NCBI GenBank assembly: GCA_963742735.1
Contig: CAVUMN010000003.1
Location: 512,001 to 576,000 of the forward strand
Length of the DNA: 64,000 nucleotides
Source: an uncultured Actinomycetes bacterium
GTDB lineage: Bacteria > Actinomycetota > UBA4738 > JBBDTT01
Direction of reading: 5' to 3'
This document shows positions 3 to 28,119 of this stretch, piece by piece (the stretch's first letter is position 1; every line of letters starts with the position of its first letter). Both the position numbers and the translations under genes were made by a program. Under the pieces are notes generated by a model. It did not search any database. It saw nothing but the letters and a program-made list of their open reading frames with translations, and was not told the DNA's origin.

Positions 3-1544
3 GAGCTGCTCCGTCAGGACTTCGAGGTCGACGTCCGCACCGAGCTGGCCTTTGACGGCCTGCCCGCCGAGGTCGGCGCCTACGACGCGCTGATCGTCCG
101 CTCGCAGACCCAGGTCACCGCCGAGGTCGTCGAGCGCGCGGAGAACCTGAAGGTCATCGCCCGCGCCGGCATCGGGCTCGACAACGTGGACGTCGAGGCC
201 GCGACCCGCCGCGGGATCATGGTGGTGAACGCGCCGCAGTCGAACATCGTGTCCGCGGCCGAGCACACCATCGCCCTGATGCTCGCGCAGGCCCGGAACA
301 TCCCCCAGGCGAATGCCGCCCTGAAGGCCGGGACCTGGGCCCGCGACCGGTTCCAGGGGATGGAGCTCGCGGGCAAGACCCTGGGGATCGTCGGGCTCGG
401 ACGCGTGGGGGCGATGGTCGCGCAACGTGCGCTGGCGTTCGGGATGCGCCTCATCGCGTTCGATCCCTACATCTCCAAGGACCGGGCGCGGCAGATGGGC
501 GTGGAGCTCATGCCGAACCTGGAGGCGATGCTGGTGCAGTCCGACGTCGTGACGATCCACCTGCCGAAGAACCCGGAGACGACGGCCCTGATCGGCGAGC
601 CGCAGCTCGCGCTCATGAAGGAGGGCGCGCGGATCATCAACACCGCGCGCGGAGGGATCGTCGACGAGGATGCCCTGGCGAAGTCGATCAAGGACGGTCA
701 CCTCGGCGGCGCGGCCCTCGACGTGTTCGTCACCGAGCCGACCACCGAACATGCGCTGTTCGACTTCGACAGCGTGGTCGTGACCCCGCACCTGGGCGCC
801 TCGACCGCCGAGGCGCAGGACAAGGCGGGGACGGCGATCGCGGAGATGGTGGCCCTGGCGCTGAAGGGCGAGTTCGTCCCGTACGCGGTCAACGTCTCGG
901 CGGCGGCGGAGGTTCCCGAGCAGGTCCGCCCGTTCATGGGCCTGGCCGAGCGCCTCGGCGCGATCCTCACCGGGCTGGCAGAGGGGCCGATGCGTTCGTT
1001 CGAGGCGGAGTACCTGGGGCGGATCGCCGAGCACGACACCCGGGTCTTGACCCTGGCCGCGCTGAAGGGATCGCTGGCCGGCGTGGTCCACGAGCCGGTG
1101 AGCTTCGTCAACGCCCCGGTCATCGCGCGCGAACGGGGGCTCGCGGTGAGCGAGAAGAAGTCGGCCGTGAGTCGCGACTACGTGAACCTGGTGACGCTGC
1201 GCGCCGACACCGAGGCCGGCGAGGTCACGGTGGCGGGGACCCTGGTCGGCAAGCGCGACGCGGAGCGGCTCACGATGGTGCACGGCTTCGACGTCGACAT
1301 GGCGCCGGCCACGTACATGGCGTTCTTCCTCTACGAGGACCGGCCCGGCGTGATCGGGACGGTCGGTTCCTTGCTCGGCGACGCCGGCGTGAACATCGCC
1401 AGCATGGAGGTCTCCCGCAAGGAGCAGGGCGGACGGGCGCTGATGGGCCTCACCGTCGACAGCCCGATCCCCGACGACATCCTGGGTCGCATCGTGGACC
1501 AGGTCGGCATGGACGGCGCCCGTCCGATCGTCCTGCCCGGCTAG
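3..1544 (+). CDS. serA: D-3-phosphoglycerate dehydrogenase (5' end outside window)
   Basis: Frame open from base 3 (ELLRQDFEVD...IARAGIGLDNVD); GLGRVG Rossmann motif, INTARG, TPHLGAST, C-terminal ASB and ACT domains (DRPGVIG). Confidence 0.95.
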   Translation, partial: ELLRQDFEVDVRTELAFDGLPAEVGAYDALIVRSQTQVTAEVVERAENLKVIARAGIGLDNVDVEAATRRGIMVVNAPQSNIVSAAEHTIALMLAQARNIPQANAALKAGTWARDRFQGMELAGKTLGIVGLGRVGAMVAQRALAFGMRLIAFDPYISKDRARQMGVELMPNLEAMLVQSDVVTIHLPKNPETTALIGEPQLALMKEGARIINTARGGIVDEDALAKSIKDGHLGGAALDVFVTEPTTEHALFDFDSVVVTPHLGASTAEAQDKAGTAIAEMVALALKGEFVPYAVNVSAAAEVPEQVRPFMGLAERLGAILTGLAEGPMRSFEAEYLGRIAEHDTRVLTLAALKGSLAGVVHEPVSFVNAPVIARERGLAVSEKKSAVSRDYVNLVTLRADTEAGEVTVAGTLVGKRDAERLTMVHGFDVDMAPATYMAFFLYEDRPGVIGTVGSLLGDAGVNIASMEVSRKEQGGRALMGLTVDSPIPDDILGRIVDQVGMDGARPIVLPG

Positions 1545-1555
1545 GGGAGCCGGGC

Positions 1556-2041
1556 TCAGCGCACCGCCTTCTTCACGAGCGCGGCGATGGCCGTCTCGTC
1601 GGCTGCGGTCAGCTTCGTCAGCGCGAAGCTGGTCGGCCACATTGAGCCCTGGTCGAGCTTCGCCGCGTCGTTGAAGCCGAACGTCGCATACCGCGCGTTG
1701 AACTTCGTCGCGCTCTGGAAGAAACAGACGACCTGGCCGTCCCTGGCGTAGGCGGGCATCCCGTACCAGGTCTTCGGCATGAGGTCCGGCGCGGTGGCCG
1801 TGACGATCTCGTGGATCCGCGTGCCCATGGATCGATCCGGCTGCGGCATCTCGGCGATCTTCTCGAGCAGGTCCTTCTCCCCGGCCGCCCGGTCCGCGCC
1901 GCGGCGCTCTTCCGCCTTCATCTCTCGGGCGCGCTCCTTCATCGCGGCGCGTTCCTCGGCCGTGAACCCCTTGGCGGACGTCTCGCGGCCCGCCAGCTTC
2001 GTCGCCGTGGGCTTCTTCGTGGCCGCCTTCTTTGCGCTCAT
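1556..2041 (-). CDS. DUF1801/YdhG-like protein
   Basis: MSAKK...[14 protein letters not shown]...[11 protein letters not shown]...CFFQ; GAAGGAGG SD before ATG at 2041. Confidence 0.8.
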
Positions 2042-2069
2042 CGTTCCCTCCTTCGGTGTCGTCACGGTC

Positions 2070-2117
2070 ATGCTAGGCGGCGGCTCGGCGCCGGCGCTTC
2101 TCGATTCCTGATCGGTC
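2070..2117 (-). promoter_or_regulatory. Operator-like 28-bp repeat, copy 1, plus -10 box TAGCAT upstream of the DUF1801 gene
   Basis: 2090-2117 is identical to 3785-3812; TAGCAT at 2070-2075 on the minus strand. Confidence 0.65.
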
Positions 2118-3347
2118 TGGTCCGCCGTTCCTGCGCCGGGCCAGCAGCAGGACGCACGCGGCGGCGCCGAGCGCCACGGTGGCGAGTCCCGAGCCGGCCA
2201 GCGTCCCTCGCGGGCCAAGCGCGGTGGTGAGCGGTCCGCCGAGCGCGGTGCCGAGCGGCGAGGCGGTGAGCAGCACCGCGCTGCGGGCCGCGAGCATCGA
2301 GGCCAGGTGCCGCGGAGGCGACGTCGTCTGCATGAGCGTCACCGAGAGCGCCACGAACGGTCCGTAGATCGCCCCGCCGAGGGTGAAGCACGCCACGGTC
2401 ACGGCCGTCGGCGCGTCGAACCCGAACGGCAGCAGGGCGAGCCCCCAGGCGACGACGATGCCGACCGTCACCGGCCAGAGCGGCAGCCGCCGCAGCGCGC
2501 CGACCGCGAGCCCGCCGAGCACCGCGCCGACTCCGAACAGCGTCCAGTAGAGGCCGAGCAGCGTGCCCGGCGCGCGCAGGTCGTCCGTCACGTGAAGGGG
2601 CAGGGCGACCTCGACCGGGCCGTAGAGGAAGTTGAAGAACCAGGTGAGCGCCAGCAGCCCGAGCAGCTCGGGATGGGTCCGCATCAACGCGAGCCCGCCG
2701 CGTGCGGCGGCCTGGTCGACCGGGTCGACGTGCCCCGATTCCGGCAGCCGGGTGCGCGCGACGAGCACGGCGAGGAACACGTAGGTGAGCGCGTCCACGC
2801 CGAGCACCAGCGCGGAGCTGACGAACGTAACCAGGACGCCGGCGATCGCGGGCCCGGCGATCATGGCGGCGTAGCCGAGCGAGCTGACGATGGTGTTCGC
2901 GGCGAGCCGCTGCTCGTCGGGCAGGAGCTCGGCCAGCAGGGTGTACTTGCCCGCGGTGCCCCACGCGTGCAGGAGCGACGAGATCCCCAGCAGCACGACG
3001 TACAGCGGCAGCGTCAGGAATCCCGCGAGCCAGGCGAGGGGCACGGCGCCGAGAACCAGGCCGCGCAGGACGTTGTCGGCGAGCAGGAGCCGCCGAGCCG
3101 GCACCCGGCGCAGACGCCGGCCGAACACCAGCGCGCCGGCGACGCCCGGCAGCGTGTACGCGGCCACCGCGCCGCCGACCCACAGCCCCACGGTGGCCGG
3201 CGGCGCGAGCTCGATGGCGAGCCACGCCACGGCGACGAAGCTCATCCCGTCGCCGAGATACGAGACCCCGAAGCCGAGGATCAGCCGCCGGAACACCCGG
3301 TTGGACAGGACCGGCCGGTAGGCGGAGGGAACGAGGCGCCGGAGCAG
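2073..3347 (-). CDS. MFS transporter (start uncertain: CTG 3347 or GTG 3296)
   Basis: About 12 hydrophobic segments; [18 protein letters not shown]-terminal MFS pattern; frame open up to the stop of the VOC gene. Confidence 0.85.
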
Positions 3348-3758
<411 letters not shown>

Positions 3759-3768
3759 GCCGTCAACC

Positions 3769-4212
<444 letters not shown>

Positions 4213-4245
4213 CTGCGGGATCGTGCCACGTCCCGCCGGAGGTGC

Positions 4246-4452
4246 CTAGGCAACCAGTCGACGAAGCTCGCTGCCCTCATCGGGACGGCTGACGTCCTGC
4301 AGGCCGACGAGTCCGAGGGCACTGAGGGCCTGGAGCCAGGCTCGCGTGGCCCCGTCGGCGACGATCACGTCAGCGAGCGGAACGGCCCGGCCGGAGGCGT
4401 GCAACTCCTCGGCGGCACGGCGGGCCTGTCGTAGCCATCGCTGAGTTTCCAT
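4246..4452 (-). CDS. Small hypothetical protein (possible PIN-domain-like fragment)
   Basis: 68-aa ORF filling an intergenic gap, AGGA before ATG; GRAVPLADVIVA weakly resembles a VapC helix. Confidence 0.3.
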   Translation of the reverse strand: METQRWLRQARRAAEELHASGRAVPLADVIVADGATRAWLQALSALGLVGLQDVSRPDEGSELRRLVA

Positions 4453-4503
4453 GGATGAGTCCTGCCCGCTGGGGGGCGCGCGGAAACGCCGGTGCCGAAA
4501 GGA

Positions 4504-5466
4504 TCAACAGGGCGGTCGCTGCGAGCCCGCCGCCGTTGCCTGCATCGCCATTGGCTCCTGCTCGGGTTCGGCGGGCCCGCGCTTGCGCCGGTGCCCGCTG
4601 AGCGCGCCCACGTAGGTCCCCGCGAGCACCAGGAAGGCGCTGATCCCGAACCGGATCGTGACGCGCTCGTCCAACAGCGCCGCGGAGAGCGTCACCGCGA
4701 CGATCGGCATGAGCACGAACAAGTAGGACATCCCACTGGCCGTCCACCGGTTCAGCGCGAAGACGTACAGGATGAACAGACCCACTGTCCCGAGCGTCGC
4801 GAGATAGATCATCGACGTCCATGTGGCGGTCTTCGAGGGGAGGGCGAAGGACTCGCCGGCGATCACGGAGAGCGCCACGAGCAGCACCGCGCCGATCCCG
4901 ATGGCGACCGCATTCGTCGTCACCGGGTGCGTCCCGGGGAACCGCTTGAGAACGATCCCGGCTTCCGCGCCGCACGCCGTTCCCGCGAGCAGCGCGAACA
5001 CCGACGGAAGGTGGATCGAGCCGTCCCCCGCGCCGCCGGCCAGGATGGCGATCCCCGCGACGGCGATCACGGCGCCGATCAGTCCACGCCAACGGAAGGG
5101 TTCCAGCCGTTGCACCACGGCGAAGAAGAACGTCAGCAGGGGGACCGTCGCCCCGAGGATCGCGGCGATCCCCGCCGGGAGCCGCTGGATCGCGTAGTAG
5201 GTGAGGGCGTAGAACGCGGTGAAGGACAGGACGCCGTACAGCGCGGCCCCGATCAGCGCACGGCCGCGAGGCAGGGGGAGCCGGCGCACGGCGACGATGA
5301 CGAACAGGAGCAGCGCCGCGACCAGAAACCGGCTGCCGGCGCCCCAGAACGGGTCGAGGTCCTTGACGGTGAACTTGGCCGCCACGAAGTTCGTGCCGCC
5401 CATCAATGCGACCGTCCCGAAGGCGATGAGGGTCAGGCGATCCGGGAGCGGAGCCTCGTCGGCCAT
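4504..5466 (-). CDS. EamA/DMT family transporter
   Basis: Ten TM segments in two EamA-like repeats (GTNFVAAK...; LLDERVT). Confidence 0.88.
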   Translation of the reverse strand: MADEAPLPDRLTLIAFGTVALMGGTNFVAAKFTVKDLDPFWGAGSRFLVAALLLFVIVAVRRLPLPRGRALIGAALYGVLSFTAFYALTYYAIQRLPAGIAAILGATVPLLTFFFAVVQRLEPFRWRGLIGAVIAVAGIAILAGGAGDGSIHLPSVFALLAGTACGAEAGIVLKRFPGTHPVTTNAVAIGIGAVLLVALSVIAGESFALPSKTATWTSMIYLATLGTVGLFILYVFALNRWTASGMSYLFVLMPIVAVTLSAALLDERVTIRFGISAFLVLAGTYVGALSGHRRKRGPAEPEQEPMAMQATAAGSQRPPC

Positions 5467-22957: not shown

Positions 22958-23485
22958 ATGCGAAGGATCATCCTCGCGACGGCCGCGCTCACGATGTTGG
23001 CCTCTTCATGCGGTGGCCTCGGTACCGAGGTGGAAACCAATGCCGAGTCAAGCCCATCGCCAGAGGCAAGCCCCCTCCAGCCAACGCCGCTTACGTCGAC
23101 GGTTTATCTCGATCCGCTGAACCGCCTGACTTTCTCCCCTCCCGAGGAGGATGCCGTGGCGAAGCTCAGCCCAAGTGAAGCGGTAGCAGAATTCAAGGCA
23201 CAGAACTCGGAGTTCGCGGGCGTCCCCGACGACGGGAAGGCGTATTTGGGCCGTTACACGGCCTGGACTGGCGGAAAGGAATTTCGGTATGACCACCATC
23301 TCGCATGGGGAATAACGTGGCGGAACTGCGCTAGGGGCGGGGCGCTGTTCCCTGATTCCAAGTCGACGTCTCCCGCGACTGCCACGCCTTCTCCGTCCAG
23401 CTCTCCGCCATGCACCTTCTGGCTGTTCCTCGATGCGAACACTGGCGAGATGCTCGAAGCGACCTGGCAGACAAATACCGACTAG
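22958..23485 (+). CDS. Hypothetical lipoprotein with atypical, lower-GC codon usage
   Basis: MRRIILATAALTMLASSC lipobox; PepSY-like C-terminus WLFLDANTGE. Confidence 0.65.
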   Translation: MRRIILATAALTMLASSCGGLGTEVETNAESSPSPEASPLQPTPLTSTVYLDPLNRLTFSPPEEDAVAKLSPSEAVAEFKAQNSEFAGVPDDGKAYLGRYTAWTGGKEFRYDHHLAWGITWRNCARGGALFPDSKSTSPATATPSPSSSPPCTFWLFLDANTGEMLEATWQTNTD

Positions 23486-23601
23486 TCGTTGGCTAGGCAT
23501 CGAGTCGATAGGCCGGAACATGCGCCGACATGTGCGACGCTTAGCGGTGGTCCCTTAGCCAAAGGTTGAACGCTCGATCGAACACGATCGAAACCCGCGA
23601 A

Positions 23602-23630
23602 GTTGGCTTCGGCAAGCCAAGCAAGCCAAC
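23602..23630 (-). terminator. Hairpin downstream of tRNA-Glu
   Basis: GTTGGCTT...AAGCCAAC inverted repeat next to the tRNA 3' end. Confidence 0.4.
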
Positions 23631-23634
23631 CCAG

Positions 23635-23707
23635 TAGTCCCAACGGGGTTCGAACCCGTGTCTCCACCTTGAGAGGGTGGTGTCCTAGGCCTCTAGACGA
23701 TGGGACC
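23635..23707 (-). tRNA. tRNA-Glu(CTC)
   Basis: GGTCCCATCGTCTAGAGGCCTAGGACACCACC-CT-CTC-AA-GGTGGAGACACGGGTTCGAACCCCGTTGGGACTA; CCA not encoded. Confidence 0.96.
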
Positions 23708-23810
23708 GAAGGGTGCGCCGAGGGCGCGAGCAGAGAGTGTAGCGGCTGCCCTCGCGCTCCGACCAAGCGCCCGAATGGCCTGCCGCCGGACGGGTATGCA
23801 TCGATGGGCG

Positions 23811-24119
23811 ATGCTCGAGTATCAGGTGGAACGCAAGGACGGGGGCGACGTGGAGGTCGCCCTTCGCGGCGCGCTCGCCGACGAGGACTGGACGGATCGA
23901 CTGGAGGCCTACCTCCAGGAGCACTACATCAACGACGGCGTGACCCGGATCATCCTGAACCTGGCCGGCGTCGAGTGGGTGGATCTGGAGGGCGTGGCCA
24001 CCCTCGTCCGGCTCGCCCATCACGCCCGTGACCGAGGCAAGCGCCTGCTGGTCACCGAGGCGAGTGACCTGGTCCGGGGGAAGCTCGAGCGCACCGGCGT
24101 GCTGGAGTACCTGAGCTGA
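23811..24119 (+). CDS. STAS-domain protein (anti-sigma-factor antagonist-like)
   Basis: VALRGAL...IILNLAGVEWVDLEGVATLV...KLERTGV. Confidence 0.75.
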   Translation: MLEYQVERKDGGDVEVALRGALADEDWTDRLEAYLQEHYINDGVTRIILNLAGVEWVDLEGVATLVRLAHHARDRGKRLLVTEASDLVRGKLERTGVLEYLS

Positions 24120-24195
24120 GATCGTTGTCGCGGCCGGATCTCGCGCGTAGGGTTCGCCTCCCCTGAACCGATCAGAACGAAACGGAGCGCCCCTC

Positions 24196-25059
24196 GTGGC
24201 CCATCGCCGGATCCTCGCCCTCCTGCTCGGCGTGGCGCTGCTCACCTCCTCGTGCGGGCTGGTCCGCATCCGTGGGAGTGCGCCGTCGGCGTCGGCCGAG
24301 GCGTCCGGGCCAATCCCCGACCGGCCCGAGTGCGCGCCGAAGCCCGTGCGGCTCGTCTTCAAGTTCGACCCGGGCACCATCCAGGCCGACCGGGATCTCA
24401 TCCGCGACGCCATCACCAAGGCTCGCGGCTACTTCCCGCTCGAGTACCCGCGCGACGCTCGCTGGTCCTACCTGGATCAGCACTACGTGTGCTACCCGAA
24501 GCAGTACTGGGAGCCGGTGGTCACGACGTTCACCCCGGCCGACGACCGCCGGACCGCCGAGTACCGCCCTCGCCGCGGCATCCGGATCTATCTGGGAAGC
24601 GACGGCTGGCGGAACTCGCCGCCGGTCTACCGGACCGTGATCGCTTTCCACGAGGCGTATCACTGGTTCCAGGACCTCGCGTCGAAGAACCCCCATTCCA
24701 TCTCGGCCGGCCACGAACAACCCCTGTGGATGGTCGAGGGGTCGGCCGAGTGGGCGGGCTGGGACGCCGCCGTGCACTTCGGCTCCTTCCCGAGCATGGA
24801 CGAGGCCCGCAGGCTGGAGCACGGGGCGCTCAACACCGACCGCGACGATCTACCGACGTACGAGTTCCCGGACGGGGACATCTTCGGCGCCTACCCGCTG
24901 TTCTTCACGGCGGTGGACGAGCTGATGGCCGACCACGGCGGGCGCACGGCCATGCGCACCTTCTGGGAGTTCGACACCAGTGAGAGCTGGCGAGTGTTCT
25001 TCCAGGAAGCCTTCGGCCTCAGCGTGAAGAAGTTCTACGCGGCGTTCGCTGCGGGTTAG
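24196..25059 (+). CDS. Lipoprotein, putative zinc metallopeptidase
   Basis: LLTSSC lipobox; FHEAYHWFQ...PLWMVEGSAEW gluzincin-like motif. Confidence 0.72.
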   Translation: MAHRRILALLLGVALLTSSCGLVRIRGSAPSASAEASGPIPDRPECAPKPVRLVFKFDPGTIQADRDLIRDAITKARGYFPLEYPRDARWSYLDQHYVCYPKQYWEPVVTTFTPADDRRTAEYRPRRGIRIYLGSDGWRNSPPVYRTVIAFHEAYHWFQDLASKNPHSISAGHEQPLWMVEGSAEWAGWDAAVHFGSFPSMDEARRLEHGALNTDRDDLPTYEFPDGDIFGAYPLFFTAVDELMADHGGRTAMRTFWEFDTSESWRVFFQEAFGLSVKKFYAAFAAG

Positions 25060-25061
25060 CC

Positions 25062-26128
25062 GTGCGGATCCTGATCAGCTATCGGCGCGAGGACTCCGCC
25101 GGCCATGCCGGCCGGCTCTACGACGACCTGACGGAGCACTTCGGCCCGGGGCACGTCTTCATCGACATCGACACCATCCAGCCCGGCGCGGACTTCACCA
25201 AAGCCGTCGCCCAGGAGATGCAGAGGTCCGAGGTCGTCCTGGTGGTCGTCGGACCGCGGTGGCTCTCGGTCACGGACGAGAGCGGCCGGCGCCGGCTCGA
25301 CGACCCCGGCGACTACGTCCGGCTGGAGGTGGAAGGCGCCCTTGCTCGGGAGGACGTTCGGCTGATCCCGCTGCTCGTCCAGGGCGCTCCGATGCCCGCG
25401 GTCCGCGATCTCCCGGAGCCCCTGCATCCCTTCGCGTACCGGAACGCGCTCTCCATCTCCGAGGACCGATGGAGGTACGACGTGGGCCGGCTCGTCCAGG
25501 CGCTCGATCCCAAGACGGCCGTACCGGAGGATCGCTCGGCGCGGACGTCCCGGGGCCGGGGTCGCGCGCTGACGGCCGCCATCGTCGCCGGCGTGGTCCT
25601 GATCGGCGGGGCGGTCTACGCGCTCACGCGCGGCGACTCGCCCGGGACCCCACCGTCGTCGCAGAGTCCGGGGACCACGGCGCCCGGTACGGTCCGCCCG
25701 CCGACCGGCTTCTCGCCCTGATCCCCGAGCACATCCGGGGGTCCTGCCAGGAGGTGACCGAGCCGAACAATCGGCCGAGCGGCGCGCTGGCCACCTTCGA
25801 CTGCGGGAGCGGCGGAGCGTACGCGTCCTACAGCCTGTTCCCGACGTCCGCCGCCGTGGACGATCTCTATCTGGAGCGGGTGGTGAATTCGGGGGTCGCG
25901 AAGAACTCGGGGGCCTGCCTCGGCGACGACTGGCCTGGGGAGGAGGGCATCGAGGGCCACGATTCGGAGCAGGCCCGGCTGCTGTGTACGCAGGAAGCGG
26001 GGGAGGATCCGAACCTCACCTGGAAGCGCTCGGACCTGATGGTCTACGCCACCGCGGGGAGCGGCGGCACGCGGGAGGACCTGCTCGAGTTCTGGGAGCG
26101 CGCCGGACCGGTCGGGCCCGGCGAGTGA
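25062..26128 (+). CDS. TIR-domain transmembrane protein with 4-Cys extracellular domain; frameshift near 25695
   Basis: ILISYRREDS...DYVRLEVEGAL TIR, then TM and Pro/Ser/Thr linker; frame stops at 25721 but coding continues in the -1 frame (ADRLLALIP...LLEFWERAGP) to 26128. Confidence 0.75.
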
Positions 26129-26133
26129 GCGTC

Positions 26134-26178
26134 TGGCTGGGACGCCAGGATTCGAACCTGGACGAACCAGGACCAAGG
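26134..26178 (-). pseudogene. 3' half of a tRNA-Gln, from anticodon to CCA, inverted relative to the intact copy
   Basis: Minus strand reads TTG-GT-CCTGG-TTCGT-CCAGG-TTCGAAT-CCTGG-CGTCCCA-GCCA; no matching 5' half found. Confidence 0.85.
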
Positions 26179-26206
26179 ATGCCGCTGCTATTCTGGAGAG
26201 GTTCCT

Positions 26207-26281
26207 TGGGACGTGGGGTAATTGGTAGCCCGACGGATTCTGGCTCCGTTAGTTCAGGTTCGAGTCCTGACGTCCCAGCCA
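26207..26281 (+). tRNA. tRNA-Gln(CTG)
   Basis: TGGGACGTGGGGTAATTGGTAGCCCG-ACGGA-TT-CTG-GC-TCCGT-TAGT-TCAGGTTCGAGTCCTGA-CGTCCCA-GCCA; TGCTATTCT extended -10 at 26186-26194. Confidence 0.96.
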
Positions 26282-26692
26282 TCTCTTCGCCCAGGTCCTG
26301 ATGCGGTGACAGTTCGCGCACACGACGTCGCATTGTGCGACTTCGGCCCTGATCTCCCGTAATGGCCGGCTCCCCTGAGCTTTGCTGATGTTGAATCTTT
26401 TTGTCTCCGGGTTCACATGATCGAAGTCCATGACGTAGGCGGGGTAGCGTCGTCCGCAGTCCGCGCACGGACGATCCTTCGCGCCCTCGAGGAATCGCCG
26501 GGCCGTCGCGCGAGACTGCCGATTTCGGGACAGGGCAGCTGATCGATACCGTTCCGCGTTCCGCGCATAGTGTTGTTTCGCGTAGGCGCTCTGACACTCC
26601 ACGCAATACGACTGCATTCCATCGGCGCGGCGACGGTTTCGGTTGAAGGACACGGGCGGCTTGGTCAGGCCGCATCCGGGACAACGCTTCAT
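26249..26692 (-). CDS. Zn-finger plus HNH endonuclease, 3' end antisense to tRNA-Gln
   Basis: N-terminal CPGC...CVEC; PCADCG...VMDFDH...CDVVCANCHRIRT. Confidence 0.85.
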   Translation of the reverse strand: MKRCPGCGLTKPPVSFNRNRRRADGMQSYCVECQSAYAKQHYARNAERYRSAALSRNRQSRATARRFLEGAKDRPCADCGRRYPAYVMDFDHVNPETKRFNISKAQGSRPLREIRAEVAQCDVVCANCHRIRTWAKRWLGRQDSNLN

Positions 26693-26698
26693 CCGCGA

Positions 26699-26720
26699 AT
26701 CGTAGCGAGCGGGTGTGACA
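26699..26720 (-). promoter_or_regulatory. PafBC/RecA-NDp-like leaderless promoter of the HNH gene
   Basis: TGTCAC-N10-TACGAT-N6-ATG. Confidence 0.65.
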
Positions 26721-26817
26721 CGATCGGGCTGCGCAGGCTGTGACGCCCGATCGCACCATCTACTAAGGTTCGCGGCTGTTGCCCGGCAGGCCGATCCTCT
26801 GGGGAAGGAGAAAAACC

Positions 26818-27150
26818 GTGAACAAGGACGAGCTCGTGGCCGAGGTGGCCAAGCAGGCCGACGTCGCCAAGTCCGTTGCCGCGGCGGTGCTCGAGGCGCT
26901 CACCGACACGGTGAAGACCTCGGTCGCCAAGGGTCAGAAGGTGGCGCTGGTCGGTTTCGGAACGTTCGAGAAGCGCGTGCGCAACGCACGCACCGCGCGC
27001 AACCCGCGCACCGGGGAGACCATCAAGGTCGCGAAGACCAACGTGCCCGCGTTCAAGCCCGGCGCCGCGTTCAAGGAGAGCGTGGCCGGCTCGAAGAAGG
27101 CGGGAGCGAAGAAGCCCGCTGCCAAGAAGACCGCCGCCCGCAAGCGATAG
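26818..27150 (+). CDS. hup: HU DNA-binding protein with short Lys/Ala tail
   Basis: MNKDELV...GFGTFE...ARTARNPRTGETIKV...PAFKPG; AAGGAG SD. Confidence 0.95.
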   Translation: MNKDELVAEVAKQADVAKSVAAAVLEALTDTVKTSVAKGQKVALVGFGTFEKRVRNARTARNPRTGETIKVAKTNVPAFKPGAAFKESVAGSKKAGAKKPAAKKTAARKR

Positions 27151-27160
27151 ATCGCTCGAC

Positions 27161-27200
27161 CGAGGGCCCCGCCGCCGGCGACCGGCGCGCGGGGCCTTCG
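27161..27200. terminator. GC-rich hairpin between convergent genes
   Basis: CGAGGGCCCCGC...GCGGGGCCTTCG. Confidence 0.6.
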
Positions 27201-27207
27201 TGCGTAG

Positions 27208-28119
27208 TCAGGCCAGGCCGTAGACGGCCGTCGCGGTGCCGCCGAGGATCGCGTCGACCTCCTCGGGGGTGAACGAGCCCTCGGGGGCGTCGGCGAAGAC
27301 CTTCACGAAGTCGTCGTCGGCGAGCGCCGCCCGGTAGTGGGGGGCGTCGGTGCCCCACATCACCCGGTGCGGGCCCACCACCTCGAGCACCTCGCGGACG
27401 TTGTCCCGGAACCGCTCGGGCGTGCGCTGGGCCCGAATCTGCCAGCCCGAGAGCTCGCAGACGACGTTCGGCTTCAGCGCGGCGACCGCGAGCACGTCCC
27501 GCCACTGGAGGTTGCCGGTGTGCCCGGCGATGATCGTGAGGTCGGGGAAGTCGGCCGCGACCGTGTCGAGCAGTCGGGGATCCGAGAAGTGCGAGTGCGC
27601 CGGGGTCGGGCTCGGGCCGGTGTGGAACAGCACCGGAACCCCCACCGCCCCGGCCGCCTCCAGGAACGGGTACACCACGGGGTCGTCCAGCCGGAACCCG
27701 CTCGAGGGATGGAGCTTGACCATCACCGCCCCCTCGTTCGTGAGCGCCTCCACACAGGCGTCGAGGGCGCCCGGGTGGCGAGGATCGGCCCCGAACCCCC
27801 ATCGGATGCGGTCGGGGTTCGCCGCCGCGAAGTCTCGATACCAGGCGTTCTGCTCACGCCACCCGACCGTCGGGGGCCCGAGGCGCTCCCACCCGCTCCA
27901 GTCGAACGGGAACGCCACGGCGACGTCGACGCCGGAGACGTCCATCGCGCCGAGCTGCATGGAGCCGTCGGTATCGAAGAACGAGGGGATCACCGTGTCC
28001 AGCAGCATCGACGCGTCGATCCCGGGAAGGGTGGCCGCGCCGACCCGCGCGACGCCCTCCCAGTATCCCGGGCCGAGCCATCCCTCCTGGACGACGTGGC
28101 AGTGGGCGTCGACGCGCAC
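27208..28119 (-). CDS. Amidohydrolase_2 family metal-dependent hydrolase
   Basis: DAHCH, KLHP, LFHTG, AGHTG, WGTDAP. Confidence 0.88.
   Translation of the reverse strand: MRVDAHCHVVQEGWLGPGYWEGVARVGAATLPGIDASMLLDTVIPSFFDTDGSMQLGAMDVSGVDVAVAFPFDWSGWERLGPPTVGWREQNAWYRDFAAANPDRIRWGFGADPRHPGALDACVEALTNEGAVMVKLHPSSGFRLDDPVVYPFLEAAGAVGVPVLFHTGPSPTPAHSHFSDPRLLDTVAADFPDLTIIAGHTGNLQWRDVLAVAALKPNVVCELSGWQIRAQRTPERFRDNVREVLEVVGPHRVMWGTDAPHYRAALADDDFVKVFADAPEGSFTPEEVDAILGGTATAVYGLA

Follow-up and report, generated by a model that had tools for sequence, protein, structure and literature searches.

How does a bacterial chromosome come to carry an intact glutamine tRNA gene that lies in opposite orientation to the broken 3' part of another one, with a small nuclease gene converging on it and overlapping its end? 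This question is raised by a locus in the 64,000-nt stretch of DNA analysed here (the window; G000:C3:512001-576000), which comes from an uncultured Actinomycetes bacterium whose genome, G000, is represented by an assembly of 88.9% completeness. A first-pass annotation had proposed that a selfish unit of roughly 550 bp cut the resident tRNA-Gln gene near the anticodon and replaced it with its own allele. Our analysis supports this interpretation in an amended form, in which the break lies at the edge between variable loop and anticodon stem and cleavage of the resident allele is something that we infer. The locus probably contains a homing-type HNH element directed at tRNA genes and equipped with a replacement tRNA, a selfish cassette of ~570 bp that has taken the place of the resident tRNA-Gln.

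The intact tRNA-Gln(CTG) gene described in the first-pass annotation was recovered by both ARAGORN and Rfam. A repeat finder paired its 3' part (26248-26281) with positions 26134-26167 as a 34-nt inverted repeat with 88% complementarity (30/34). The match between the two tRNA sequences had an E-value of 6e-8 within the locus and 8.7e-6 against the whole genome, so the repeat cannot be attributed to chance. The second copy is a remnant on the minus strand, 39 nt upstream of the intact gene, and comprises the variable loop, T arm, acceptor 3' strand and CCA; as reported earlier, it is co-oriented with a tRNA-Glu gene, both lying on the minus strand. The two copies are indeed different alleles, with the T stem reading CCAGG/CCTGG in the remnant and TCAGG/CCTGA in the intact gene, a compensatory change. 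The coordinates likewise bear out the described overlap of 33 nt between the HNH gene and the intact tRNA gene: the last 11 codons of the former, stop included, lie antisense to the tRNA stretch that begins with the variable loop and ends with the CCA.

Two details of the remnant had to be corrected. It had been drawn as far as 26178 and said to end at the anticodon; similarity to the intact gene, and likewise to that of a relative's native tRNA-Gln (G001), stops at 26167-26169, about tRNA position 42-44, where the variable loop and the first two anticodon-stem bases (3' strand) lie. The TTG that had been read where the anticodon falls is unsupported: it requires a 1-nt shift, is not preceded by U33 and has no 5' stem partner, and the stretch concerned resembles the upstream region of other cassettes. 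Positions 26170-26206 align loosely with the tRNA-upstream region of other cassettes and have no counterpart in G001.

Comparison with G001, a genome of the same genus (61% complete) in which no HNH gene was found, delimits the insertion. Its locus (L017) reads orf287 homologue, tRNA-Gln (minus), HU (plus) and amidohydrolase (minus). In a BLASTN comparison of G000 positions 25700-27200 with this locus, the remnant plus 8 nt past the tRNA 3' end matched at 38/42 positions in the same orientation. Homology resumed at 26741, 77 nt before the HU start, and continued through HU at 81% identity, and the intact G000 tRNA matched the G001 tRNA gene on the opposite strand only. G001 has a single tRNA-Gln gene at the place of the remnant and on the same strand, not the half-plus-full arrangement, which speaks for the first-pass proposal; therefore G000 carries an insert of ~573 bp. 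This insert, 26170-26740 with junction bases, stands for ~115 bp of G001, namely the 40 nt of the tRNA 5' part and a spacer of ~75 nt. A simple inversion of a pre-existing block of HNH and tRNA genes was considered and rejected: no second tRNA copy would then remain, and the two that are present belong to different alleles.

A 16-nt inverted repeat with 81% complementarity and arms 1 nt apart (26721-26753; core CGATCGGGC / GCCCGATCG) spans the right junction of the cassette. Its left arm is inside the insert and its right arm in the part that G001 also has; the repeat may form a hairpin or record fold-back repair at the junction.

The same comparison bears on the possibility that the locus is a decayed island of the integrase type, or a prophage, in the 3' end of tRNA-Gln, with the remnant as an att-like repeat. 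Integration at tRNA genes classically leaves a duplicated tRNA 3' end behind. However, the repeat is inverted rather than direct, its two copies are different alleles, and the whole insert relative to G001 is ~573 bp with only the tRNA and HNH genes inside, which largely refutes this origin. In agreement with the first-pass annotation, Pfam scans of 15 neighbouring open reading frames (ORFs) within ~8 kb revealed no domain of an integrase or transposase. We consider an origin of this type very improbable.

The HNH gene was detected in 8 of the 61 genomes examined in the order, G000 included. The HU/tRNA-Gln neighbourhood is conserved across the order: where HNH-free genomes have HU nearby, it mostly diverges from tRNA-Gln, L038 being the one co-oriented exception, and in the HNH-bearing genomes with HU present (G000, G049, G023 and G040) the order is HU, HNH, inverted tRNA. 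In G055, the Gln and Glu tRNA genes are co-oriented, with an orf287 homologue between them. A second before-and-after comparison is provided by G040 of family f5. Relative to four HNH-free f5 genomes, its flanks are collinear and its tRNA is inverted in all four comparisons, and sequence of the native tRNA 5' flank turns up beyond the HNH start. The HNH gene of G040 is frameshifted, with residues 1-78 and 63-146 in separate frames, and that of G029 is reduced to a C-terminal fragment (residues 110-146) with an in-frame TGA. Presence or absence at a collinear locus, a co-inherited tRNA marker and degenerate copies of the invasion-decay type are all traits of homing endonucleases.

The statement that the unit cannot easily be lost is borne out for its tRNA, which is the sole tRNA-Gln among the 52 tRNAs detected in the 88.9% complete assembly, and fails for the HNH ORF, given the frameshifted copy in G040 and the fragment in G029. 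No tRNA-Gln(UUG) was found among the 52 tRNA genes of G000 (C1-C5), though CAA codons would need one, and it may lie in the missing 11%. The survey also placed a tRNA-SeC gene at C4:787839-787933.

Unpublished genomes entered the comparison as G049 (L003/L014; an HNH-bearing Gln locus and a row of the homologue alignment A1), G030 (L013) and G006 (L031; one f6 native allele). The comparisons of G000 with G001 and of G040 with f5, the loci L075 and L175 described below and the locus counts are independent of them. In G008 (L002, 1498-2216), the HNH start region directly adjoins a 68-aa gene with no HU between, unlike in G049, G023, G040 and G000. The same genome has a second family member (L009) beside tRNA-Pro(tgg) / tRNA-Gly(tcc). 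In G000, the 934-bp tRNA-Gly(tcc)/tRNA-Pro(tgg) gap, which is the site of the paralogue in relatives, holds one ~300-aa ORF with no HNH match.

The tRNA alleles that travel with the nuclease gene differ from those of HNH-free genomes. HNH-free genomes of families f2-f7 have a near-invariant tRNA-Gln, and all nine HNH-linked alleles differ from it. The cassette allele of G040 agrees with the f5 native allele at 61-63 of 71 positions and with the cassette allele of L042 at 69 of 71; the f5 native alleles agree with each other at 71 of 71 in the two pairs compared. The G033 cassette allele matches those of four HNH-free f6 genomes at 61 of 71 positions, and the alleles of G029 and L044 are identical (72 of 72). 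For the G000 cassette tRNA, the values are 60 of 72 against the G001 native allele and 65 of 72 against the G029 cassette allele. Judged by sequence, the tRNA allele follows the HNH gene and not the host family.

The nuclease assignment of the 147-aa protein was only partly confirmed by database comparison. The first-pass annotation had called it a zinc-finger/HNH protein; Pfam gave no family at E ≤ 0.01 (five families were listed up to E 10, none of them HNH), and PADLOC gave no match. NCBIfam returned nothing meaningful, and a PDB sequence search only chance matches (E 0.67, cytochrome c). However, the protein matched PHROG 2255, 'HNH endonuclease', over residues 1-137 (E 3e-36) and PHROG 3106 (E 2.1e-28). 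No GIY-YIG domain was matched in Pfam, NCBIfam or PHROGs, where the matches obtained were to families of HNH or endonuclease VII type. The G000 protein keeps every one of the 20 invariant columns in the 29-sequence homologue alignment A1. Among them, D91-H92, N127 and H129 occupy the positions of the HNH catalytic motif, and two CxxC pairs that bracket it, as expected for a structural zinc (C76/C79 and C125/C128), are invariant, as are, fully or nearly, the N-terminal cysteines C4, C7, C30 and C33.

An AlphaFold (AF2) model built from this alignment had a predicted local distance difference test score (pLDDT) of 93.6, with only the tail (residues 145-147) below 50; these disordered last residues belong to the part encoded antisense to the tRNA. 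A Foldseek search of the PDB with the model gave nothing at E ≤ 0.001. In a structural comparison of residues 64-140, the Gme HNH nuclease scored Z 5.8 (root-mean-square deviation 2.8, 60 residues aligned) and T4 endonuclease VII Z 4.6, values that are modest and below the safe level of the tool; the match list was dominated by HNH domains, and residues 1-39 aligned with a zinc ribbon. From the motif, profile and predicted fold combined, we accept the protein as a putative HNH nuclease, and with all invariant residues present the G000 enzyme looks intact.

Homologues of this protein are strongly associated with tRNA genes of varied isotypes, which the first-pass annotation had set as a check on its proposal. 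In the genome collection (best 80 of 298 relatives examined), 75/80 loci have a tRNA gene no more than 150 bp away from the HNH homologue, and 33 have one on both sides. In the metagenome collection (best 80 of at least 469), the count is 61/80, with many of the other 19 on short contigs, and the tally includes 33 distinct partner arrangements and more than 20 anticodons. A random gene of the same size would have a ~1-2% chance of such a neighbour, by arithmetic from the 52 tRNAs in the 3.08 Mb of G000. All nine places where homologues occur in relatives have a tRNA gene in the locus. Partners include tRNA-Arg(acg) upstream of the HNH gene in 21 loci of Acidobacteriota, tRNA-Pro(ggg) / tRNA-Gly(tcc) in Solirubrobacterales, tRNA-Gly(tcc) ... 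tRNA-Thr(ggt) in Planctomycetota, convergent tRNA-Lys(ctt), convergent tRNA-Gln(ctg) and others. Homologues at ~40% identity occur in 383 phage records, and all three of those inspected (ArcherS7, TunaTartare and Finemlucis) are flanked by tRNA genes. On an archaeal contig (L102, Nitrosotalea; 285-4573), a family member lies within a run of 14 co-oriented tRNA genes spanning 4.3 kb, which suggests a tRNA array, possibly viral or mobile.

In a quick tree with support from the Shimodaira-Hasegawa-like approximate likelihood ratio test (SH-aLRT), the proteins group by partner tRNA and by host taxon. Clades that follow host taxon would also fit a vertically inherited host gene with a role at tRNA loci, in repair, processing or regulation, in which case the G000 arrangement would be a local duplication-inversion unrelated to mobility. 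In many species of Solirubrobacterales (at tRNA-Pro/Gly) and Acidobacteriota (at tRNA-Arg), the HNH gene is intact and remains at the same locus, which could reflect a host function rather than selfish spread. Furthermore, an HNH gene upstream of cyanobacterial tRNA arrays is reported to be co-induced with the array (PMC8421152). A resident gene does not fit the patchy distribution in the order, the frameshifted and fragmentary copies, the presence and absence at one locus within a genus or the tRNA alleles foreign to the host family. In addition, the two copies in G000 are different alleles, 30/34 identical and with a compensatory T-stem change, which argues against a recent local duplication. 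We find this explanation quite unlikely for G000.

Split tRNA genes like that of G000 occur beside other members of the family. In an acidobacterial locus (L075), the 5' part of a tRNA-Gln gene runs from 2287 through the anticodon arm. Beyond a 27-nt gap lies a second tRNA-Gln, intact and of another allele (2353-2426), and then the HNH gene (2486-2902). Directly after the HNH gene come a T arm and acceptor 3' strand (2899-2923) that pair with the acceptor strand of the 5' part. Joined in silico, the halves were called as tRNA-Gln(ctg) by ARAGORN, and the motif (G)CTAT is present at both junctions. At L175, the corresponding order for tRNA-Lys(ttt) is 5' part (from 606), intact tRNA (726-799), HNH (897-1382) and 3' part (1420-1444), and in silico joins were called tRNA-Lys at 61/108 offsets. 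At L145, a tRNA-Arg(tct) 5' part ending near position 39 is followed by the HNH gene and then by a full tRNA-Arg(tct) of another allele. In the tRNA-Arg(acg) clade, a 3' part starting from position 38-48 lies directly after the HNH stop in 5/21 loci; its T stem is of a different allele, and the similarity reaches z 5.4-14.7 against shuffles. Part-copies are thus present in several clades, and the break points cluster at tRNA positions 38-48, between anticodon stem and T stem, in G000 as elsewhere. Overall, genome comparison brings out the insertion, its boundaries, the apparently foreign tRNA allele and the family-wide association with tRNA genes, split ones included.

Further rearrangements were seen at loci of the same family. 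At L097, positions 3003-3025, just after tRNA-Gly, repeat 23 nt of the tRNA-Pro(ggg) anticodon arm (tRNA positions 26-48) without a mismatch; the copy points the opposite way to the intact tRNA-Pro on the far side of the HNH gene. Close relatives in the Solirubrobacterales differ in how tRNA-Gly and tRNA-Pro are oriented around the HNH gene, a hint of repeated tRNA flips similar to that of G000. At L086 (1667-2333) and L163 (2132-2798), a tRNA-Arg(tct) 3' remnant lies ~570 nt from the intact gene. The gap in L086 holds a non-HNH ORF of ~170 aa, and in related loci the Arg gene directly follows tRNA-His; L086 and L163 may represent a second kind of insertion in the same tRNA cluster.

The recurrence of split genes also bears on whether the nuclease had any part in the event. 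A fragment with tRNA and HNH genes, derived from a phage or plasmid, might have been caught at a chance break by illegitimate recombination, the HNH gene contributing neither to the break nor to its own spread. Such a passenger would be in keeping with the phage records and the tRNA genes around the three inspected homologues, with the inverted orientation and the loss of ~115 bp, which fit end-joining, and with the single remnant among the Gln-convergent cassettes. Nevertheless, the same kind of event recurs across families, phyla and isotypes with breaks clustered at positions 38-48, the tRNA-Gln beside HU is targeted in several families, and chance capture would not yield tRNA adjacency in 75/80 chromosomal loci. 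We regard capture of a passenger as unlikely, though not negligible.

The preferred reading, a homing-type element, can be set out as follows. The cassette (26170-26740) consists of tRNA-Gln(CTG) with its own upstream region and the convergent, overlapping HNH gene with its own promoter-like motif. It entered the resident tRNA-Gln gene, between the upstream ORF and the HU gene, at the edge of anticodon stem and variable loop. The resident 5' part and ~75 bp of upstream spacer were lost and the 3' 34-36 nt left in their original orientation as the remnant, with the work of the resident tRNA now presumably done by the cassette tRNA. By analogy with homing endonucleases of phage tRNA clusters, the HNH enzyme would cut HNH-free tRNA genes close to the variable loop, and mending of the break would carry over the nuclease gene along with a replacement tRNA or part of one. 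The target's own halves could serve as homology arms, both of them flanking the insert (L075, L175) or only one (the Arg clades, L145). For the left junction in G000 an illegitimate join would be needed, because the cassette is inverted and the resident 5' half and spacer are gone; the right boundary may be inherited from an earlier event. That the cut was made by this enzyme, where it was made and that the cassette allele is protected from it we infer; indirect evidence for a cut near the insertion site comes from the clustering of tRNA break points in several clades.

Promoter-like motifs were noted for both cassette genes. The first-pass annotation had given the tRNA a -10 box of its own. 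A scan for sigma-70 consensus (E. coli-type) promoters and a scan for terminators over 25900-27000 gave none of either, and no promoter was called at that box; a TGnTAnnnT motif does occur at the same place upstream of most tRNA-Gln genes in the order. Directly before the HNH start, a motif GTGTCA[GC]ACCC-N7-CTA.. is found in 4/9 compared cassettes (G000, L003, L041 and L043) and in degenerate form in L005 and L007. In G000 its -10-like hexamer is at 26699-26704 and its -35-like hexamer at ~26715-26720, both on the minus strand.

Besides the missing Pfam and PADLOC matches, the modest fold scores and the stable loci of Solirubrobacterales and Acidobacteriota, several observations weigh against the homing reading. 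Simple homologous gap repair does not account for a cassette that is inverted, and among Gln-convergent cassettes only that of G000 has kept a tRNA remnant. The cassette tRNA of G000 is not simply foreign, because it has the acceptor stem of the genus-native allele; it is a mosaic, and gene conversion or selection is needed to account for it. No single nucleotide difference consistently sets the cassette alleles as a whole apart from susceptible ones: every one of the former has the 4:69 pair flipped, but so does the native allele of G001. An HNH-free genome, G030 (L013), has a tRNA-Gln identical to the G033 cassette allele (71/71) in native orientation, ~40 nt from the HU start; either G030 represents a source lineage of cassette alleles or conversion gave it the allele and not the nuclease gene. 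The part-copy control is weak and has too little power to reveal an enrichment: none turned up in the 75 kb of 26 HNH-free loci, for ~2 expected at the rate of the 85 HNH loci, which yielded 10 in 398 kb. Finally, the loci are interrelated, so the locus counts overstate the number of separate events.

A broader generalisation is conceivable, and we put it forward tentatively, as an idea that may well not hold in full. HNH proteins of the PHROG 2255 type might define a class of minimal 'tRNA-swap' homing elements with a wide distribution, which takes in phages, one archaeal contig and the chromosomes of several bacterial phyla. They would break tRNA genes at the junction of anticodon arm and T arm (~38-48), carry a tRNA or half of a different and presumably uncut allele, use the two halves of the target as portable homology arms and so home into the same tRNA gene whatever its neighbours. 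Because the break position is common to at least five isotypes, recognition could possibly be in part structural, directed at a DNA cloverleaf or cruciform as for endonuclease VII, and not purely by sequence.

If the enzyme does cut tRNA genes, the cassette would be a compact selfish element that holds an essential gene hostage, and its deletion would cost the host what is apparently its only tRNA-Gln. Such elements would account for tRNA genes in odd orientations, for tRNA alleles of foreign origin and for stray tRNA halves in bacterial genomes free of integrases, and 'tRNA-swap' elements would drive, unnoticed, the turnover of tRNA alleles as well as inversions and rearrangements in bacteria. 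They would also provide a set of small (~140 aa) nucleases with long, conserved and predictable natural targets, whose specificities could be read from paired 'resident' and 'replacement' alleles, and a testable case of a homing element moving between genomes that have only the target gene in common.

Table 1. Coordinates of the cassette, the tRNA remnant and adjoining features in the window
Feature	Position	Strand	Remarks
tRNA-Gln remnant of the resident gene	26134..26169	-	spans about tRNA position 42/44 to 76: CCA, acceptor 3' strand, T arm and variable loop, with no more than 2 nt of the anticodon stem
Left end of the cassette: region upstream of the cassette tRNA	26170..26206	+	contains TG-extended -10-like TATTCT at 26189-26194
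Intact tRNA-Gln(CTG), cassette-borne	26207..26281	+	ARAGORN; Rfam tRNA, 62.2 bits, E 3.5e-12
Gene of putative free-standing HNH endonuclease, 147 aa	26249..26692	-	N-terminal CxxC...CxxC zinc ribbon; PHROG 2255
Right end of the cassette: HNH upstream region	26693..26740	-	promoter-like motif a few nt ahead of the ATG
Native flank: HU upstream region and HU gene (26818-27150)	26741..27150	+	81% identity to G001 over 420 nt; Pfam Bac_DNA_binding, E 2e-29
tRNA-Glu(CTC), context	23634..23707	-	ARAGORN and Rfam; same orientation as the remnant

Between tRNA-Glu and the remnant (24196-26128) lie three ORFs, encoding a 287-aa protein without a Pfam match, a TIR_2 protein and a 130-aa protein. The TIR_2-domain ORF (25062-25721) matched Pfam at E 4.4e-12 and the ThsB-like profile of PADLOC at E 6.7e-10. 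In family f8, the Gln-Glu spacing is only ~100-250 nt. The three ORFs look like a small island, possibly related to defence, in a tRNA-flanked hot spot.

Among known systems, islands borne by integrases target tRNA 3' ends, restore the gene with an element-borne part and leave a partial duplicate. In contrast, the G000 locus has no integrase and an insert of only ~570 bp, its repeat is inverted and a whole tRNA gene is supplied. Group I introns with homing endonucleases target tRNA anticodon loops in cyanobacteria and plastids. Unlike in those cases, the resident gene here is broken and replaced rather than spliced, and an Rfam search at E ≤ 1 over 23000-28000 found only two tRNAs and no intron RNA. 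The literature covered, the main texts of freely accessible papers, has HNH or GIY-YIG genes in phage, plasmid and array tRNA clusters, but in it we found no account of a minimal cassette of tRNA and HNH genes that splits or replaces a lone tRNA gene of a chromosome.

HNH genes have been described in tRNA arrays of mycobacteriophages, of Mycobacterium plasmids and chromosomes and in cyanobacterial L-arrays, and were proposed to spread or diversify tRNAs (PMC5966550, PMC6409571, PMC8421152). The phage homologues of the G000 protein (~40% identity; ArcherS7, TunaTartare and Finemlucis) are of that kind; all8564 and the array HNH proteins are likened here by description and not by sequence family. 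These reports concern arrays of many tRNAs on mobile replicons or islands and association only. By comparison, the ~570-bp cassette of G000 replaces a lone, apparently essential chromosomal tRNA, with its boundaries, the inverted replacement copy and the remnant all visible. The F-Tfl endonucleases of phage T5, mentioned in PMC2330249 as homing endonuclease ORFs in a tRNA gene cluster, belong to a phage, unlike the chromosomal G000 gene, and the likeness is one of tRNA-cluster location only.

The nearest parallel is SegB of phage T4, characterised in PMC2330249 as a free-standing GIY-YIG homing endonuclease encoded in a tRNA gene cluster. SegB recognises a 27-bp site in tRNA genes that includes a T-loop motif, cuts at tRNA gene 3' ends and drives the inheritance of itself and of flanking tRNA genes (PMC2330249). 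According to a 2026 paper, its homologues are enriched near phage tRNAs (PMC13096335). The G000 gene resembles SegB as a free-standing nuclease gene among tRNA genes, and the enzyme may work like SegB, but it is not a member of that family, being HNH and not GIY-YIG. SegB is known from phage genomes and from tRNA clusters, whereas the gene affected here is a single-copy chromosomal tRNA, and the accessible parts of the SegB reports (PMC2330249, PMC13096335) do not describe the split or replaced resident tRNA with a remnant that is seen here. Homing endonucleases in phage tRNA clusters were already known from SegB and phage HNH proteins; the minimal chromosomal form of the tRNA swap would extend the phage-based account of SegB and tRNA clusters to ordinary chromosomes across phyla.

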